Assembly: GCA_964648335.1 (NCBI GenBank) | Contig: CAZYLZ010000004.1 | Coordinates: 6,189 to 70,188, forward strand | DNA: 64,000 bases | Origin: an uncultured Candidatus Saccharibacteria bacterium | Lineage (GTDB): Bacteria; Patescibacteriota; Minisyncoccia; Phycocordibacterales; UBA2100 | Reading direction: 5' to 3' | Shown: positions 37,316-62,104 of the stretch, in pieces | How positions within the stretch are numbered: the first letter of the stretch is position 1 | Layout of the letters: each line of letters starts with the position of its first letter | Notes under the pieces: model-generated | Seen by the model: the letters and a program-made list of their open reading frames with translations, nothing else | Databases searched by the model: none | Told to the model about the DNA's origin: nothing | Made by a program: the position numbers and the translations under genes

Positions 37316-37411
37316 CAGACTGTCTCCTTTCCGATCTCGGCTGTGTTGGACTTTCCAATATCAATTAAATACCCAGACGGATGTAAATGCAATGAAGTAA
37401 GAAGATCTCTC

Positions 37412-37475
37412 TACCACCCCTTTGCCGCAAGGGCGTTCTCTGCGGCCATCTGCTCGCCCACTTGCTTGGACCTCC
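37412..37475. repeat. Diverged direct duplicate (about 89% identity over about 64 nt) of the rnc 3' end (38350-38413). In-frame and ends with TAG.
   Basis: The 29-nt perfect core aagggcgttctctgcggccatctgctcg occurs at both sites. Minus-strand translation of the copy gives ...KQVGEQMAAENALAAKGW* versus rnc ...KQEAEQMAAENALSAKGW*. Confidence 0.8.
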
Positions 37476-37564
37476 TCTTCGTCTTTTTTCCTTTTTGCCA
37501 GATAAACCCTGTCTTTTTATCTCCTCATATTCACACCGTAAGCTCTTTCTCCATACATGTCCTT

Positions 37565-37598
37565 ATATCAAGACGACCGTTTCAATATAAGAAATCGG
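37565..37598. repeat. 34-bp quasi-palindrome downstream of PaaX-like gene 1 (tccttatatcaagacgaccgtttcaatataagaa). Same sequence family as 38222-38255.
   Basis: Central acgRccgt core flanked by inverted tccttata/tataagRa arms. About 80% identical to the copy upstream of the gene. Confidence 0.7.
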
Positions 37599-38220: not shown

Positions 38221-38221
38221 A

Positions 38222-38255
38222 TCCTTATATTAACACGGCCGTCTATTTATAAGGA
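38222..38255. repeat. 34-bp quasi-palindrome immediately upstream of PaaX-like gene 1 (tccttatattaacacggccgtctatttataagga). Putative operator.
   Basis: Near-perfect dyad around a palindromic acggccgt core. Begins 2 bp upstream of the gene start. Confidence 0.7.
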
Positions 38256-38348
38256 TACTGAGAGGAGATCGGGCAAAATTGAGGGACGGGAAATCGCTTG
38301 GTAGGTGCCGGGCTTTTCGATGTATCGTTAGAGAAACGCTTGTGTGAA

Positions 38349-39038
38349 TTACCAACCTTTTGCTGAAAGGGCGTTCTCTGCGGCCATCTGCTCGGCCTCT
38401 TGCTTGGACTTCCCTTCGCCCTTGGCGACCAAGGTCTGGCCTATGTAGGCTCCCGTTATGAACTTCTTGTCGTGGTCGGGTCCTGCCTGCGCCACGAGCT
38501 CGTACGACGGCGTGATGCCCTCTTTCTCTTGCGCGATCTCCTGGAAGCGGCTCTTAGCGTCTTGCCAGAGGCGTTTCGCAACCACCTCGTCGGTCTTATG
38601 GAACAGCTGCTTGGCGATAAACTGCTCTGCGGCAGCATAGCCTTGGTCCAGGTACAAAGCACCTATGAAGGCCTCGAAGGTGTTGGCCAGTATGTATTGG
38701 CGTGCGCGGCCGGTGTCTTTTGCCTCGCCCTTCGAGAGGAGCAAGAAGTCGTTCATGCCAAGATCGGTCGCAGCCTGCGATATAGAAACAGTATTGACGA
38801 GCGCTGCACGAAACGCTGTGAGCTCCCCTTCGGCTTTGTCGGGATACTTGCCGAACAAAAAATCGGTGACAGCAAGCTCCAAGACCGCGTCGCCCAAGAA
38901 CTCGAGACGCTCGTTATGTGCGATACCCGAGCGGTTCTCGTTTATAAACGAGCGATGTGTAAAGGCCTGCTTTAGCAGCTCTTTCTTGGCAAACGTAAAG
39001 CCGACACGTACCTCGAATGTAGAGAAATCTTTGTCCAT
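38349..39038 (-). CDS. rnc: Ribonuclease III.
   Basis: RNase III signature ERLEFLGDAVLELAVTDFLF; C-terminal dsRBD. Confidence 0.9.
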   Translation of the reverse strand: MDKDFSTFEVRVGFTFAKKELLKQAFTHRSFINENRSGIAHNERLEFLGDAVLELAVTDFLFGKYPDKAEGELTAFRAALVNTVSISQAATDLGMNDFLLLSKGEAKDTGRARQYILANTFEAFIGALYLDQGYAAAEQFIAKQLFHKTDEVVAKRLWQDAKSRFQEIAQEKEGITPSYELVAQAGPDHDKKFITGAYIGQTLVAKGEGKSKQEAEQMAAENALSAKGW

Positions 39039-46919: not shown

Positions 46920-48800
46920 CTAAGAACGGTTGATGATAAGCCGAGGCATACCATCGTTACCGGTAGAAAACTGCATGGTGTCGTGAGTTGTGATATCCGA
47001 GGTGACGATGACTTTCTCTGGGGCGGCAGTTGTGACAGGAGCCTCAGGAGTAATCGGTGCCTCTTCGTAAGCTGGCTCGTCGATGATGGTCTCGTCGAGG
47101 ATCATAGACTCGGGGTCGCTTGCGTGAGCAGATGCTCCCACGAGTCCCAAGACCGATCCTGCAAGGAGTCCGCGCTTGGCTACCACGAGGTAGCCTGCGA
47201 CGACCGAGAGCGATACAAGAGTGAACCAGTACATCGCGTTTCCGAACGGACCGAAGTCGATGCCGGTATACGGGATCTGCGAGAGCGATACGTACGGTGC
47301 ACCCGAGACGTTCACGTTGGTCGCACAGGTGGTCTGGCGTCCCGCGAAGTCTGCGATGGTGAGCACGTAGCTGCGCGATGCCTCTGGGCGTACTGCGAGC
47401 ACTCCCGAAGGGTTTACGTTACCCAAGCCGTCAGAGAGCCATGCACGTACGGCACCCGTCGAGTTCCAGGTAAGGTTTGCTGCAGCGCCGTTTGCAATAA
47501 CATTTGGCGTTGCCGAGATCGAGCATGCAAGGTTGCCAGGAACAGGGATTGGCGTAGGAACCGGTACTGGGATGTAGGTGCTGCCTACCACAGTCGAACA
47601 GGTGTTCGAGCGACCGTTGTTGTATACCGTGAGGGTATAGGTACGTGCGCCGTTGTTAGTACCTGGGTAGACGGTCGTGGTGCCCGCGGTCGAGACCGTT
47701 CCGACACCCGAGAGGTTTGCCGAGGTGGCGTTGTACGAGGTCCAGGTGACCGTCGCATAGCCGTTTGCGTTGATAGTAGAAGGGTTTGCAGAGATGGTGC
47801 AGGTAGGAAGCTGGACCGGCTGTGGCTGTGGAGCGACAACGGAAACCGTTGCTGCACACGAGCTCGTACCGCCTGGGCCATTAACCTGCATAGTGTAGGT
47901 GCGGTTGGTGGTGACGTTCGCTTCGGTTCGGGTACCCGAGCCTATTGCGACCTGGCCAAAGCCCGAGAGGTTTGCCTGGGTTGCATTAGTGGTCGTGTAG
48001 CCAATCGAGACGGTGCCGCCGTAGTTTACCCCCGTGACATGCAGCTGGCATGACGGAACTGGGTAGAACTGTGCCTGCACTATTGGCTGTGGGGTCACCT
48101 GGGTGACGCGAGCAACAGTAGTTACCGGAGTGACGGTGGTTACCGGGCGTGCAACCGAGGTTGCGTATCCAGTAGCGCCGTAGGATGCGCCACGAGCGCT
48201 GGTGTACGAGCCGTAGGCCTGTGCACCGTAGCTAGCTGCGCCATAGCTTGCCGATCCCATTGATACGCCGTAGCCGTCTTCGTTGACGTTAGTCCATGTG
48301 TCGGACTCCGCGACGTTAGTCCAAGTATCTGATTCATTGACGTTAGTCCACGTGTCGGACTCCGCAAGATTAGACCAGGTGTCAGACTCGGACTGGTTAT
48401 ACCAAGCATCGGTGTCACCGGTGTTTGTCCACACATCGGAAGCTGCGTTGTCGTACCATGCATCAGAAACGCCCAAATCAGCCCAGGTATCGGACGAGCC
48501 ATCGGTGTACCAAGAATCAGAGTCGCCGCCAGCATCAGTCCACGTATCAGAAGATCCGCTGTCGTACCAAGAATCCGATGAACCCGAATCATACCAACTG
48601 TCAGACGACCCACTGTCGTACCACGAATCGGACGAACCAGAGTCGTACCAACCGTCGGAATCTCCAAAACCGTCTGCGAATGCTATCTGCACCGTACCAA
48701 AAACACTGGCGAACATGATCGTCGCGACGAGTGTGGTCTGTGCTGTTGTTGCCAATGTCTTATACATACTATGCGTTGTTAAACCCTGTAATAGAGCCAT
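46920..48800 (-). CDS. Large secreted surface protein. Signal peptide, tandem SDSWYDSGS / ESDTWTNVN repeats, three Cys-bracketed domains of about 75 aa, ...YVSLSQIPYTG motif plus TM plus KRG, then a 90-aa acidic C-terminal tail.
   Basis: MYKTLATTAQTTLVATIMFASVFGTVQIAFADG signal (alternative start at 48767). Repeats CTISANPSTINANGYATVTWTSYNATSANLSGVGTV...C. C-terminal PYVSLSQIPYTGIDFGPFGNAMYWFTLVSLSVVAGYLVVAKRG. Confidence 0.7.
   Translation of the reverse strand: MALLQGLTTHSMYKTLATTAQTTLVATIMFASVFGTVQIAFADGFGDSDGWYDSGSSDSWYDSGSSDSWYDSGSSDSWYDSGSSDTWTDAGGDSDSWYTDGSSDTWADLGVSDAWYDNAASDVWTNTGDTDAWYNQSESDTWSNLAESDTWTNVNESDTWTNVAESDTWTNVNEDGYGVSMGSASYGAASYGAQAYGSYTSARGASYGATGYATSVARPVTTVTPVTTVARVTQVTPQPIVQAQFYPVPSCQLHVTGVNYGGTVSIGYTTTNATQANLSGFGQVAIGSGTRTEANVTTNRTYTMQVNGPGGTSSCAATVSVVAPQPQPVQLPTCTISANPSTINANGYATVTWTSYNATSANLSGVGTVSTAGTTTVYPGTNNGARTYTLTVYNNGRSNTCSTVVGSTYIPVPVPTPIPVPGNLACSISATPNVIANGAAANLTWNSTGAVRAWLSDGLGNVNPSGVLAVRPEASRSYVLTIADFAGRQTTCATNVNVSGAPYVSLSQIPYTGIDFGPFGNAMYWFTLVSLSVVAGYLVVAKRGLLAGSVLGLVGASAHASDPESMILDETIIDEPAYEEAPITPEAPVTTAAPEKVIVTSDITTHDTMQFSTGNDGMPRLIINRS
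48283..48665. repeat. Imperfect 27-bp tandem repeats encoding (S/E)D(S/T)W(Y/T)(D/N)xGx nonapeptide repeats.
   Basis: Top-strand units gttagtccatgtgtcggactccgcgac / gttagtccacgtgtcggactccgcaag etc. At least 5 SDSWYDSGS copies. Confidence 0.7.
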
Positions 48801-58866: not shown

Positions 58867-59331
58867 ATGAAGCGACATCACAGCGCACTCATTCTTCTCG
58901 CTGCGCTCATCATCGTCTTTGCGTACGTTCAGTACTCGATAAAGACGCGCTTTATCTCGACCGACACCGTCGACGTCGCGACCACCGAGGTCGTGACCAT
59001 CTGCGGCAAAGAGCTCGAAACCGATGTCGTGACGATAGACGGCGTCGACGTCGCACGCGAGCTGGGAGCGATCATGACCAGCGAATACGAGGCAGTGGCG
59101 AATAAAGATGCGACAAGCTGCTTCGTGATGCAGGCGTATCTCGATGGCACGCGGATACGCACCTCGGTAACCGAGGAGATTGGCATTGACTCACCACTCA
59201 AGGGTAGGCACCTGTACCGCATCCGCCTCGACGACACGCAGTTCTTGCTGGACCGCGCAACACGGCAAATCTACAGCGTAAACACGATGGACGGCAGCAC
59301 CCGCGATATCGTCGGCATCTTTGCCGACTAG
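58867..59331 (+). CDS. Membrane-anchored hypothetical protein (154 aa).
   Basis: N-terminal TM MKRHHSALILLAALIIVFAYV. Intact ORF. Confidence 0.45.
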   Translation: MKRHHSALILLAALIIVFAYVQYSIKTRFISTDTVDVATTEVVTICGKELETDVVTIDGVDVARELGAIMTSEYEAVANKDATSCFVMQAYLDGTRIRTSVTEEIGIDSPLKGRHLYRIRLDDTQFLLDRATRQIYSVNTMDGSTRDIVGIFAD

Positions 59332-60035
59332 AACGGCTGCACTACCCCTTTGTGATCGACGAATGCACCCGAAACCAGGGTGTCTTTTTTTGCCGTAAGC
59401 AGTGCAAAGATGTCGCGTGCAGCGTCTGTGGCAGCAATAGGCGCCGACGTGCCACCCATATCGGTAGCGACCCAGCCCGGGTGTATCAAGACCGATGTGA
59501 TGTCTTTGTTGCGTATGCCGAACGACGCGAATGCGTAGTTGAGTGCAGCTTTGCTCGCACCATACGCCCAATGGTCGGCATAGTATTGGTTGCCCTCTCC
59601 CACAGTAAGCGCAGACACCGATCCCATGATCGACGTGATAGAGGCGACGATCTTGTCGTTACCGGCATGAAGGTTTTCTAAGAGAGCATTGGCCAAAAAA
59701 GTGGGACCGATGGCATTGGTCTTGAATATGGTATCGACAGTGACGAAATCGCTAGTGATATCGTCGTCATCGACCGAGGTGCTGTCGTAGAGCCCAGCGT
59801 TGTTGATGAGGATGTCGAGACCGACTCCGGAAAGCGATGACGCGAGCGCTTGAATAGACTCTTGGCTCGTGACATCCAAAGGCACCACGATGGCGGACGC
59901 GTCTGCCACCAAGTCCTCGGGCATGCTGCCAGGGTCGCGCACCGCGGCGTACACCTGCCACCCTTCGCGCAAAAAGACCCGAGTAAGTTCGAGCCCCACC
60001 CCGCGCCCAGCCCCGGTTATGAGTACGGTTTTCAC
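59328..60035 (-). CDS. Short-chain dehydrogenase/reductase (SDR) family oxidoreductase; GTG start.
   Basis: TGAGRGVG cofactor-binding motif, NNAG motif, catalytic Yxxx K region (YGASKAALN). Confidence 0.8.
   Translation of the reverse strand: MKTVLITGAGRGVGLELTRVFLREGWQVYAAVRDPGSMPEDLVADASAIVVPLDVTSQESIQALASSLSGVGLDILINNAGLYDSTSVDDDDITSDFVTVDTIFKTNAIGPTFLANALLENLHAGNDKIVASITSIMGSVSALTVGEGNQYYADHWAYGASKAALNYAFASFGIRNKDITSVLIHPGWVATDMGGTSAPIAATDAARDIFALLTAKKDTLVSGAFVDHKGVVQPF
60005..60034. repeat. Native 5' end of the SDR gene (first 10 codons), duplicated in diverged form at 60979-61008.
   Basis: gcccagccccggttatgagtacggttttca versus gcccagtctcggtaatgagtacggttttca (27/30). The copy reads ATGAAAACCGTACTCATTACCGAGACTGGGC (MKTVLITETG) versus the native VKTVLITGAG. 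Confidence 0.75.
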
Positions 60036-60123
60036 AGAGTAATACTAACACCCAACATTCATCAGGGTTACCCTTGTCCGCACGTCGACCTCCATGATGA
60101 TCGCCCAAACTACATGCACCGAT

Positions 60124-60157
60124 AATGTCCTATAGGACATTATCGGTGCATTCAAAA
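60124..60157. repeat. Perfect 34-bp palindrome gcaccgataatgtcctataggacattatcggtgc, between PaaX-like gene 2 and the SDR gene. Putative operator.
   Basis: Exact reverse-complement symmetry. Same family as 60755-60786 and 60841-60874. Confidence 0.8.
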
Positions 60158-60190
60158 AATCGCAAAAAAATAATTGGTACCGCAGTATAC

Positions 60191-60754
60191 TTAACGAAGT
60201 GAGAAGTGTGACCTAAGATCGCGGTCGTTCTCGATCGATTCTACAACCATGTACACAAGATGTTTTCCTATCCCAAGTTCAGTTTTTAATAATGTAAGCA
60301 GATCCTCGCAGTCGTAGGGATGAATCCAGACGCTATCTTGTAAACGCAAGAAGCCGGCGAGCATCAAGATTTCTCGAAGACGAACTCGCAGTTTCCGCCG
60401 TTTCTCTGGTATATCGAACACAACCACACGCCATCGTTCGTCCCACAGACGTGCACGACGTATCGCAAAATCCTCGAATACAAATTGTGACATCCTTCGC
60501 TCACCAGCTCTTGTGAGCGAATAGCCCTTCTCAGACCGTATTACCAAGCCGTTTTCTACCAAACGCTCAAGCGATCGGCCAAGGCTCGCCTTATGTCGTT
60601 TTCCCGGCACCATGCCGAGCCTCTGCATGGCACCGAGGATGTTTGGCACTACTAAGGCCACCGCTAAGACTCCCGCGAGTTTTATCGCATTAAGCAAAAG
60701 CTTTTGCTCGGGCGACAACCTCTTCTTCCTACCTTGTTCCTCAACAGCTCCCAT
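60191..60754 (-). CDS. PaaX-family transcriptional regulator-like protein, short form. Paralog of 37639..38220.
   Basis: WDERWRVVVFDIPEKRRKLRVRLREILMLAGFLRLQDSVWIHPYDCEDLLTLLKT (PaaX central/Cas2-like motif). wHTH ...LERLVENGLVIRSEKGYSLTRAGERRM. Confidence 0.6.
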   Translation of the reverse strand: MGAVEEQGRKKRLSPEQKLLLNAIKLAGVLAVALVVPNILGAMQRLGMVPGKRHKASLGRSLERLVENGLVIRSEKGYSLTRAGERRMSQFVFEDFAIRRARLWDERWRVVVFDIPEKRRKLRVRLREILMLAGFLRLQDSVWIHPYDCEDLLTLLKTELGIGKHLVYMVVESIENDRDLRSHFSLR

Positions 60755-60786
60755 ACGCCGATACTAGCCTATAGGACTATATCGGT
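60755..60786. repeat. Degenerate copy of the 34-bp palindrome (cgccgatactagcctataggactatatcggtg), abutting the start and RBS region of PaaX-like gene 2.
   Basis: 26/32 identical to 60125-60156. Centred on tcctatagga. Confidence 0.6.
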
Positions 60787-60840
60787 GTAGTTGCGTTGCC
60801 ACGAGGATCATTGCGCGTAATTCTTCTGTCTTTTTGGCTT

Positions 60841-60874
60841 TTCTACCAATACACCGATAACATCCTATAGGATG
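60841..60874. repeat. Perfect 34-bp palindrome acaccgataacatcctataggatgttatcggtgt, a variant with the central tg/ca dinucleotides swapped.
   Basis: Exact dyad. Differs from 60124-60157 only at the inner NN positions (CA...TG versus TG...CA). Confidence 0.8.
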
Positions 60875-60978
60875 TTATCGGTGTATTTGGAAGCGGATAA
60901 TGCTAAAAAATGGGTGCTAGAGATTGACAGAGATGGAGGCTAGAGTATTTGATGCTATCATCTGCCACACTTCCAACC

Positions 60979-61008
60979 CTGCCCAGTCTCGGTAATGAGT
61001 ACGGTTTT
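60979..61008. repeat. Diverged duplicate of the SDR gene 5' end (pseudo-start ATGAAAACCGTACTCATTACC...).
   Basis: See 60005-60034. It lies 944 bp away, on the far side of the PaaX-like cassette. Confidence 0.75.
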
Positions 61009-61060
61009 CATCCTTTAGTGTAAACCTAATAACTCTAGCAGGCGAACAAATGAGTCGACT

Positions 61061-62104
61061 TTAAAAAGGAATATCATCAATACTTATGTCAGGAGGTCGG
61101 GTAATTTCTACAGGTGTAAGTACCATCGGGCGTGGTGGCGATTCAAGGCCCAGTATACGCTTGGCACGAGCAAGTACATGATCATACGTCATGATTGCGA
61201 GGTTATGGTACGAAGAATTTACAATTCGATAGGCTTCATTCTGTGAAGAAGTCCAGTCCGCTGATCGCCCAAAGACTAACACGCAGCGTGGTTTTACAGT
61301 CTTTACATATTCGATCCTTTCAAGAAATTTGACACTGTTTGCCTCGCGCTCAAGCTCATAAACATACCTATTTGCCTGTGTTATTGCTTTCGTTAAATCC
61401 GGCGATGGAATATCATTCCCATGATCCTGACTATTCGCCCAAAACGTGAGGCCACCTCCGGGCCGCTTTATCTCAACAACATCCACGAAGCCATCATAGG
61501 CCTGCATTAAATAGTCTGAGACATGCGCTGTATCAATCGATCTCTCGTCCAGTATCTTTACAAACTCTGTTCCTAATACCCAATGATTCTCTTTAAACCA
61601 TTTCTGCCAACTACTTTCAGTTAAATCTTCACCCAGCATGCGCTCGAAGTCTTCCAATGCAGAAACCCTCTTTTGCTGGTCTAGACTGAGTAAGATATCT
61701 CTCGGTAAAATTGAGTTTTCATTTATGAACTTCAGAACACTTGTCTTGTCAGGATTCTCGAAGAGTGCCTTGATATGCTCAATATCGCCGCCATCAAATT
61801 TCTGATCAAGAGGGATATATTTTTTTACCCCATCTATTAGAGGAGCATAATTCTCACCTATAAATTTAACTAAAGATAAAAATTCTTCATTATCTAATGT
61901 GAGCTCGCTCTTCGGAACAGTAACCTCTGGCGATTCGGCCCCAACCTCATTCTTATAACGACCAATCTTGAGATTTATGTCATCAGTTTTTCCGGAATTA
62001 TGCGGAACCCTCCAAAAAGAGGCTCGTGTGACAACGGTTTTTTTCCTTTTTAGAACAGTGTGCAATGAGCCTATGCCTCCCTTACTTTGTCGCACCTCTT
62101 TCAT
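61061..62104 (-). CDS. PD-(D/E)xK nuclease-fold protein resembling the Shedu/DUF4263 defense family. The gene is AT-rich (about 42% GC versus about 58% for flanks).
   Basis: ESSWQKWFKENHWVLGTEFVKILDERSIDTAHVSDYLMQAYDGFVDVVEIKRPG has a D...(D)hhEhK nuclease motif preceded by a W..F..N.W.LG segment. Visibly lower GC than neighbours. Confidence 0.5.
   Translation of the reverse strand: MKEVRQSKGGIGSLHTVLKRKKTVVTRASFWRVPHNSGKTDDINLKIGRYKNEVGAESPEVTVPKSELTLDNEEFLSLVKFIGENYAPLIDGVKKYIPLDQKFDGGDIEHIKALFENPDKTSVLKFINENSILPRDILLSLDQQKRVSALEDFERMLGEDLTESSWQKWFKENHWVLGTEFVKILDERSIDTAHVSDYLMQAYDGFVDVVEIKRPGGGLTFWANSQDHGNDIPSPDLTKAITQANRYVYELEREANSVKFLERIEYVKTVKPRCVLVFGRSADWTSSQNEAYRIVNSSYHNLAIMTYDHVLARAKRILGLESPPRPMVLTPVEITRPPDISIDDIPF

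Follow-up and report, generated by a model that had tools for sequence, protein, structure and literature searches.

The stretch of 64,000 nucleotides (nt) analysed here, which we refer to as the window (positions 6,189 to 70,188 of contig CAZYLZ010000004.1, from an uncultured Candidatus Saccharibacteria bacterium), contains two short cassettes, each built around a single gene that encodes a winged-helix protein with a Cas2-like domain and matches the PaaX_M family. Cassette 1 lies at the 3' end of rnc and cassette 2 at the 5' end of a gene for a short-chain dehydrogenase (SDR); in both cases the cassette gene is accompanied by palindromes and enclosed between two copies of the end of the neighbouring gene (Table 1). 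In the account given below we develop the view, to which we attach about an even chance, that these are horizontally moving, autoregulated cassettes that enter a genome through one crossover inside a gene end, for which they supply a replacement, and that do so with no recognisable recombinase of their own.

At the SDR locus the beginning of the dehydrogenase gene is present twice. An initial annotation of the window had described this duplication as a match of 27/30 nt, and the repeat finder bears this out (30 nt, 90%, at 60005-60034 and 60981-61010). The match is better than chance would give: when the 900-nt flanks on the two sides of the cassette open reading frame (ORF) are aligned locally, the score is 21, and 150 trials with mismatched locus pairs gave a mean of 10.3, a standard deviation of 1.5 and at most 17. 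The second copy had been placed at 60979-61008, about 2 nt too low, and the distance of 944 bp attributed to it corresponds to the gap between the copies (a span of 945 bp) and not to the period, which is 976 nt from start to start. With the start codons included, the copies at 60005-60035 (GTG) and 60981-61011 (ATG) agree at 27/31 positions, and the peptides reported for them, MKTVLITGAG and MKTVLITETG, are correct by translation. It is the GTG-started copy that belongs to the working gene, since the adh_short match begins at residue 2; in the displaced copy the Rossmann glycines are gone, and the ratio of nonsynonymous to synonymous differences per site (pN/pS) is ~1.2 over 14 codons, with 11 differences between the SDR copies. 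Between the copies lie the cassette gene and, as had been annotated, three copies of a palindrome (CCGATAnnnnCCTATAGGnnnnTATCGG), all of which could be located, with 0 expected by chance. The right arm of the cassette presumably must contain whatever now drives SDR, and the first ~15 nt of the left arm may be a decayed continuation of the SDR copy; a scan of 59900-61200 for sigma-70 promoters and terminators gave nothing exceeding shuffled expectation.

Cassette 1 repeats this layout with different components, in agreement with the statement of the initial annotation that two loci share it. The rnc 3' end at 38350-38413 recurs at 37412-37475 (64 nt, 89%) around a 193-amino-acid (aa) paralogue with its own palindrome pair, which differs from that of cassette 2 (centre CGGCCG or CGACCG, arms TCCTTATA/TATAAGGA). 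The two cassette proteins are 38% identical, and a hidden Markov model of the family finds exactly these two genes in the window. Outside the palindromes the arms of cassettes 1 and 2 are similar in length (92/93 and ~80/78 nt) and unrelated in sequence. Fixed element ends were considered and rejected, given that the arm sequences are unrelated between the window cassettes and that arm lengths vary in other loci. The two rnc copies, with a pN/pS of 0.33 from 9 differences, are each other's closest relatives, and their mean identity to rnc relatives is 0.71 for copy A and 0.68 for copy B (80 rnc loci fetched).

Table 1. Positions in the window of the two cassettes, their palindromes and the duplicated gene ends.
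Feature	Position	Strand	Remarks
SDR gene	59328..60035	-	GTG start; adh_short PF00106, residues 2-195, E=3.3e-23
Cassette 2, repeat copy A': SDR 5' end on working gene, first 31 nt	60005..60035	-	repeat family D15
Cassette 2, right arm, 78 nt, downstream palindrome to SDR start	60036..60113	-	
Cassette 2, downstream palindrome ATGCACCGATAATGTCCTATAGGACATTATCGGTGCAT	60114..60151	.	core match 60119-60146
Cassette 2, gene, 187 aa, N-terminal winged helix and C-terminal Cas2-like domain (PaaX_M)	60191..60754	-	
Cassette 2, ATG-proximal imperfect palindrome, presumed operator	60755..60788	.	ends exactly at start codon; core 60758-60785, one mismatch to search pattern
Cassette 2, distal perfect palindrome, 40 nt	60848..60887	.	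I18, 20+20 nt, 100% complementary; core 60854-60881
Cassette 2, left arm, 93 nt	60888..60980	-	
Cassette 2, repeat copy B': displaced/pseudo SDR 5' end	60981..61011	-	D15; ATG MKTVLITETGQGWKCGR stop
Cassette 1, repeat copy A: last ~22 codons and stop of working rnc (38349..39038)	38349..38417	-	repeat family D6
Cassette 1, upstream site ATCCTTATAAATAGACGGCCGTGTTAATATAAGGAT (minus strand)	38221..38256	.	ends at ATG
Cassette 1, gene, 193 aa	37639..38220	-	PaaX_M E=1.4e-21
Cassette 1, downstream site, centre CGACCG	37559..37594	.	outer arms TCCTTATA..TATAAGGA as upstream
Cassette 1, repeat copy B: displaced rnc 3' end	37411..37479	-	still reads ..RRSKQVGEQMAAENALAAKGW, then own stop

The two cassettes belong to a large family, of which at least 586 related loci were found in Patescibacteria species-representative genomes; 80 of these were fetched and analysed together with the window cassettes (82 loci, where W1 and W2 denote window cassettes 1 and 2 and L numbers denote fetched loci). 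A profile search of 1.84 billion cluster representatives returned 689 clusters (50% identity) at E<=1e-30 and 3621 at E<=1e-10. All 80 fetched loci come from Patescibacteria-type assemblies, 12 of which hold 2-3 copies, and the homologues, which measure ~190 aa and are annotated in the databases as 'PaaX' or 'Cas2', come from Kaiser-, Adler-, Zambryski-, Taylor- and Nomurabacteria and from Paceibacterota. As far as sampled, the family is confined to the Patescibacteria (candidate phyla radiation, CPR), and mainly to the Paceibacteria. The idea of a recurrent insertion process, put forward in the initial annotation from two loci, is supported by this abundance of further copies, by seven further loci with flanking repeats, by empty sites and by the occurrence of related cassettes in unrelated contexts. 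The family is apparently undescribed, no description of it having been found in literature on PaaX/Cas2-like genes in Patescibacteria, CPR or Parcubacteria and on winged-helix, palindrome, mobile-element and gene-cassette topics.

The palindromes are cassette-specific, 34-40 bp long and present in two or three copies per gene; their sequences vary from cassette to cassette around a common design, with outer arms that often read ATAC../..GTAT and a centre of CTATAG, CGATCG or CGGTCG. When a shared site was accepted only if its score exceeded the 99th percentile of mismatched pairs, 55/81 loci had a site common to the 120-nt flanks on the two sides of the coding sequence (before the ATG and after the stop codon), and in 37 of the 55 the shared segment was itself an inverted repeat. 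The upstream site ends at most 3 nt from the ATG in 32 loci, the downstream site starts a median of 18 nt past the stop codon, and an exact TATAAT is found 10-45 nt before the ATG in 21/81 loci, against 0.009 per background window, and in only 9/55 of the downstream site copies. Since the site brackets the gene, with its upstream copy lying over a -10-like box and touching the ATG, the protein most likely binds as a dimer and represses its own gene; the simplest reading of the site layout would thus be a dimeric winged-helix protein that represses its own promoter and has a second cognate site behind the gene. A search for structured RNA in the arms gave no Rfam family at the gathering threshold, the permissive matches being hairpin look-alikes. 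Two further arrangements of such sites were observed in the fetched loci. At L077 the 38-bp palindrome of the cassette, each arm of which contains TATAAT, occurs a third time as an exact copy (7641-7690), at a distance of 3 kb from the cassette and ~110 nt upstream of a 239-aa membrane-protein gene. At L026 (7385-8132) two related palindromes, the centre of which, AGCTATAGCT, is the same as in many PaaX-like cassettes, enclose a gene for a DinJ/RelB-like antitoxin (7542..7814) and one for a RelE/YafQ-like toxin (7824..8081); palindrome bracketing is therefore not limited to the PaaX-like family.

The protein encoded by cassette 2 matches Pfam family PF20803 (PaaX_M, E=4.7e-20), and in its AlphaFold model the C-terminal beta-alpha-beta-beta-alpha-beta domain (residues 108-183) is confident, with a predicted local distance difference test score (pLDDT) of about 90, and the N-terminal part is poorly defined. 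The top structural matches in Foldseek are E. coli PaaX (8a39) and Rv0674 (3kfw), in both of which, as here, an N-terminal winged helix is followed by a central Cas2-like domain; they are followed by many Cas2 chains and VapD, with target-normalised TM-scores of 0.45-0.66, which share the ferredoxin-like fold of the predicted model. PaaX itself is the repressor of phenylacetate catabolism, and its C-terminal effector domain, which binds phenylacetyl-CoA, is absent from the cassette proteins (187 and 193 aa), which stop after the central domain. Their scores of 34.5 and 37.2 bits against the PaaX equivalog TIGR02277 lie far below its cut-off of 264.55, no paa genes adjoin either window cassette, and in other genomes the neighbours vary (ligA, ruvC, recJ, murB, the S10 operon). 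Cas2 profiles match weakly (PF09827, and TIGR01573 with 28.2 bits against a cut-off of 24.5 over residues 108-150 only), and in contrast to Cas2 and VapD the cassette domain is fused to a DNA-binding domain and its gene stands alone with its own palindromes. The pair F113-D114, with its acidic residue at the end of beta-1, is nevertheless invariant in 35 sequences, and the beta-1 Asp (FD[IV]P), QxSVW and PYDCE are invariant or nearly so in the family alignment; Rv0674, when aligned, has other residues in place of the beta-1 Asp and of QxSVW. Because the PaaX C-terminal domain is missing, the equivalog cut-off is failed and the beta-1 Asp is conserved, we regard the protein as PaaX-like in architecture and Cas2-like in conserved residues, and as a member of neither functional family. 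PADLOC gives just weak Cas2 profile matches and no membership of a defence system, and no CRISPR repeat-spacer array is present among the repeat families of the window, where cas1 was not specifically searched for. Set beside toxin-antitoxin modules, the cassette has one fused gene rather than two, a palindrome that overlaps the -10 box and the ATG, and a VapD/Cas2-like fold. Carriage of the cassette by phages was considered as well and rejected, there being no relative of its protein among the 2.9 million viral contigs of IMG/VR.

When palindromes are set aside, direct repeats flank the cassette in 9/82 loci (~11%). They consist of the rnc 3' end in W1 (64-69 nt), the SDR 5' end in W2 (30 nt), the ligA 3' end in L019 and L027 (~125 nt at the protein level, E=2.5e-15 and 2.6e-11), the ruvC 3' end in L051 (44 nt), the recJ 3' end on the opposite strand in L031 (20 nt), the 3' end of a gene together with a 35-nt intergenic stretch in L004, with a different gene between the two parts in each copy, a palindrome with its arm and a tRNA-Leu fragment in L041 (157 nt), and a perfect intergenic repeat in L061 (21 nt). 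The nine repeats enclose 760-1150 nt and the same single gene, with one extra 76-aa ORF in L004, and 10-95 nt separate the palindromes from the borders of the repeats. Among 273 placements of control ORFs of comparable size there were 14 matches, just 4 of which were distinct and non-trivial, and the tie between duplicates and cassettes that the initial annotation proposed holds as a roughly fivefold enrichment (~5x) over control ORFs, with the qualification that the duplicates are found at a small minority of the loci and around other genes too. The length of the repeats is not fixed (20-157 nt). In W1, W2 and L031 the repeats have their outer limit exactly at a start or stop codon, and in L019, L027, L051, L004 and W1 the displaced copy continues to a stop codon of its own; in L031 the stop reads TGG. 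Two of the fetched loci deserve a description of their own. At L001 a 77-nt direct repeat (93% identical, 1392-1468 and 2930-3007), made up of the first 23 nt and the upstream region (promoter) of a receiver-domain gene (923..1414, minus strand), flanks a 1.5-kb segment with a TrmB-like helix-turn-helix (HTH) gene (1561..2337) and a 135-aa gene, which may use the repeated start. At L041 (1000-2240) a tRNA-Leu(CAG) gene (1177-1259, minus strand) is accompanied by two degenerate tRNA-Leu copies, each of which adjoins a palindrome with a 70-nt arm; one of these units is without a gene and constitutes a solo palindrome remnant.

Repeats of this kind could in principle be made in situ, by an insertion that duplicates its target stretch through staggered cuts and fill-in or through replication slippage or template switching, with subsequent decay of the outer copy as a pseudogene. 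Such an origin is suggested by the window pairs, the copies of which are mutually closest (86-90% identity; for rnc, no relative reaches more than 79%), by the W2 pseudo-copy with its lost glycines and its high pN/pS, and by the perfect intergenic repeat of L061. It fits poorly with the spread of repeat lengths and with outer limits that fall on start and stop codons, and it is at odds with the manner in which the copies differ at the other loci. Neutral drift of one copy since the insertion is expected to produce a pN/pS of about 0.55 or more, together with frameshifts, and the values found are 0.26 in L019, 0.22 in L027, 0.23 in L051, 0.18 in L031 and 0.23 in L004, with 0.27 for all seven coding pairs pooled. 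The synonymous sites of the ligA copies are near saturation, the 14-codon core of the L051 repeat (EFDAIAIGLTHFAI) has 5 synonymous and 0 replacement differences, the displaced copy of L027 (D27) is an intact frame of 41 codons, and that of L019 (D19) has a single stop. With pN/pS so far below the neutral expectation, the displaced copies appear to have spent nearly all of their divergence inside working genes; and since the five coding cases differ mostly at synonymous sites, the testable duplicates are, as judged from their substitutions, two diverged coding versions of a gene end and not decayed target-site duplications made by the insertion. As an account of the family we therefore consider in-situ duplication unlikely.

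Empty target sites, to which the initial annotation had pointed as a check, were found at two of the target genes. The genes rnc and smc are contiguous, with a spacer of 12-134 nt, in L090, L098, L099, L103 and L104, and in L088, L089, L091 and L097 the spacer is filled by a distant, oppositely oriented member of the family with 39-bp palindromes. At two of these filled loci (L088 ~3870-4060 and L091 ~3240-3420) the start-codon region of smc is interrupted by an insertion of ~170 nt, which has the appearance of a miniature inverted-repeat element: its ends are inverted repeats (CCCGTTAGAAG...CTTCTAACGGG), and ATGTA is duplicated. Other genes come directly after ligA in loci L166-L170, and so in the four LigA relatives nearest to L019 (84-89% aa identity), which represent empty sites, and the distant L027 (ligA ~66-73% nt identity) shares the filled structure of L019, collinear at ~70% identity. 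The four ligA ends of L019 and L027 are about equidistant (62-70% nt) with saturated synonymous sites, as would be compatible with a vertical as well as with a horizontal origin of this common insertion. Within L019 the comparison with its closest empty-site relative, L167 (82% identical in the 900-nt ligA segment compared), reveals a mosaic: the attached copy (U19) is native-like to about nt 108/126, and D19 is native-like over its last 18 nt (7/7 informative sites, including the identical TTACAAATATTGACA), D19 and its downstream flank being collinear with the ligA end of L167. This is the pattern that would be expected from one crossover inside the gene end, and we take it as modest evidence for such an event. 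Cassettes with 66-78% identical proteins are found in unrelated contexts (for example L020/L037, L014/L018 and L005/L015).

Taken across genomes, the better general explanation is that the cassette carries a gene end with it. A DNA segment consisting of the cassette and a stub of the gene next to which it lay in its previous host, possibly in the form of a circular intermediate, would join the homologous gene of a new host through a single crossover in the gene end, of the Campbell type or the attachment-site type, after which one version of the gene end would complete the working gene and the other would persist as a displaced stub. Two such versions flanking the cassette, one of them completing the gene, are found in W1, W2, L019, L027, L051, L031 and L004. 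Cassette 2 matches the family in every anatomical respect, and if the same events took place at the SDR locus, the stub would be the SDR 5' end, the GTG copy on SDR would have come, at least in part, with the cassette, and the ATG copy upstream would be the native start, displaced and now decaying; the direction of transfer in this scheme is our tentative assignment. The recombination itself might be performed by the host, through homologous or short-homology recombination after DNA uptake, by a recombinase acting in trans, or by the cassette protein.

Several observations weigh against a cassette that moves with its own gene end. Flanking duplicates are missing from 89% of the loci, and they flank other inserted genes too, as at L001. 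The breakpoint permutation test of the L019 mosaic is significant against one relative only (p=0.017 against L167; not significant against L166). Identity between the attached and displaced ligA copies is only ~64%, and no uninterrupted match exceeds 17 nt, which makes ordinary RecA recombination between them implausible. No recombinase is present in the cassettes, their sole enclosed gene matching only PaaX_M, Cas2 and winged HTH profiles in Pfam, NCBIfam and PADLOC. For the window cassettes in particular, the shortness of the repeats, their 86-90% identity and their pN/pS of 0.33 and 1.2 mean that an in-situ duplication might account for W1 and W2 taken alone. Neither rnc copy can be assigned as native, because the sole close rnc relative (92%) is without the 3' end and none closer than 74% retains it. 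No empty site was found in close relatives for the SDR or the rnc locus of the window: the SDR protein matches at 100% on five filled contigs, the next homologue following at 53%, and the 18 contigs on which the rnc or cassette 1 protein recurs unchanged are filled and 99.6-100% identical. In the population that carries the window sequence both cassettes are fixed in many samples, and there is no sign of current activity. Finally, the exact cognate site beside the membrane-protein gene of L077 suggests that some cassette proteins may have ordinary regulatory targets. Two contigs differ in structure from the rest. In L184 (JGI 3300045377 Ga0490019_022876) an internal fragment of guaB (IMP dehydrogenase), at 1-308 and in opposite orientation, is joined at window position ~38308, within the left arm of cassette 1 and 41 nt past the rnc stop, with ~12 nt common at the joint and 99.96% identity over the following 2.4 kb, and this represents either a second cassette context or an assembly chimera. 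L081 (JGI 3300045332 Ga0490005_002210) has a perfect inverted duplication of the pheT-Shedu-cassette-SDR segment, tail to tail, which is almost certainly an assembly artefact.

It is in the light of these points that a second alternative has to be weighed, namely that the family consists of ordinary autoregulated paralogous transcription factors, that the duplicates are a by-product of generic uptake of foreign DNA and that the cassette contributes nothing to its own movement. The route would be one homologous anchor combined with an illegitimate join, or single-crossover integration, in bacteria that naturally scavenge DNA. Because duplicates surround other genes at L001 (the TrmB-like HTH segment within a repeat of another gene's 5' end and promoter) and palindromes do so at L026 (the DinJ/RelE-like pair, with the same GCTATAGC centre), this host-driven route is a serious rival, and the third exact site of L077 and the fixed, stable window population agree with it. 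The same is true of the cassette copies within one genome, which differ from one another as much as random pairs do (median 51%, maximum 65%) and so give no sign of recent intragenomic copy-and-paste. What it leaves unexplained is that flanking repeats are roughly five times commoner at cassettes than at control ORFs, that throughout the 64-kb window the palindromes sit only next to their own gene, that most loci have a paired site past the stop codon, which would be unusual for a plain regulator, and that related cassettes recur in unrelated contexts; on balance we think it improbable, to about the same degree as duplication in situ.

Homology-facilitated illegitimate recombination and Campbell-type integration during natural transformation add DNA beside a conserved gene by means of one homologous anchor, and they resemble the present case in yielding chimeric repeat copies with no element-encoded enzyme. 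The similarity of the ligA copies (~64%), by contrast, is too low for efficient homologous pairing, and these processes are not known to give rise to a recurrent, family-specific architecture. Integron attC cassettes and Xer-dependent pdif modules are small promoter-poor or single-gene units between variable imperfect palindromes, moved by a recombinase in trans, and toxin-antitoxin genes are among their frequent cargo. The likeness to them lies in the palindrome bracketing, including that of the toxin-antitoxin pair of L026 between similar palindromes. The differences are that the palindromes described here are not at the edge of the insert, having 10-95 nt of unrelated arm outside them, that the upstream palindrome doubles as promoter and operator, and that no recombinase-binding arms are conserved across cassettes; integron cassettes, moreover, have attC at the 3' end, and here palindromes stand on both sides and overlap the promoter. 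A Pfam scan of the neighbouring ORFs found no integron integrase, and there was no Rfam match and no array. From insertion sequences and transposons the cassettes differ in that the Pfam scan found no transposase domain, in that the palindromes are not at the ends and in that the repeats have no fixed length.

The closest parallel for the paired gene ends is prophage e14 of E. coli, in which icd runs on into prophage sequence and a pseudogene of its C-terminal part, icdC, lies at the opposite border; most differences between the two icd versions are synonymous or conservative, and the gene left by excision is chimeric yet functional (PMC13626634). The likeness to e14 and phage 21 at icd consists in the two versions of a gene end, one of which completes the gene, as at the 3' ends of ligA, ruvC, recJ and rnc here. 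Yet e14 is ~15 kb long and has its own site-specific recombination system, and the cassettes measure 0.8-1.1 kb, hold one gene and no recognisable recombinase, and, unlike e14, use many different target genes, at 5' ends (SDR) as well as 3' ends. That each cassette is what remains of a larger integrated element (a prophage, an integrative and conjugative element or an island) with the repeats as its attachment sites and its integrase deleted, as the low-GC Shedu gene immediately upstream of the displaced SDR copy and the normal dependence of the e14-type architecture on an element-encoded integrase might suggest, is very unlikely, since nine independent loci enclose just 760-1150 nt and the same single gene (with the 76-aa ORF in L004), the Shedu gene lies outside the repeats, and the protein has no relative among the 2.9 million viral contigs.

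As regards the surroundings of the cassettes, cassette 1 has rnc, a small ORF and a 1256-aa ORF as neighbours, and cassette 2 has SDR, Shedu and pheT. The Shedu SduA defence gene (61061-62104, minus strand; PADLOC PDLC00385, E=1.8e-137; Pfam SduA_C) lies between pheT, 6 nt from its stop codon, and the displaced SDR 5' copy, and its GC content, at 0.37-0.46, is markedly low for a neighbourhood with about 0.55-0.58; the gene was probably acquired separately. Elsewhere in the window, two stretches of imperfect tandem repeats (periods 12-18 nt and 27-54 nt, at 5881-6095 and 48279-48663) lie within ORF-rich regions and probably encode repetitive low-complexity proteins.

As for the agent of movement, the most far-reaching proposal is that the winged-helix/Cas2-like protein is itself the mobility factor, which would recognise the two palindromes, nick or cut DNA by means of a Cas2-type acidic site and thereby release or activate the cassette with its stub. 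We regard this as doubtful, somewhat more so than either of the two main alternatives discussed above; were it true, the cassettes would form a new class of single-gene mobile element, and the protein would be a free-living selfish relative of Cas2, with a bearing on the origin of the second subunit of the CRISPR adaptation module.

The wider interest of the family lies in the organisms that carry it. CPR/Patescibacteria have tiny genomes for which few mobile elements have been described, and here a family of ~700 sequence clusters has the form of a one-gene cassette that is present in multiple copies, at variable positions and sometimes with a substitute end for a host gene. If the cassettes are truly mobile, they would be among the smallest integrative units known, without a recognisable recombinase, and they would place outside CRISPR, in a selfish setting with DNA-sequence specificity, a Cas2-like domain whose acidic site is intact. 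With one protein and one 36-bp site, they offer a tractable system for how DNA gets added to CPR genomes, where past insertions and chimeric gene termini can be recognised by short 'pseudogene' copies of gene ends.

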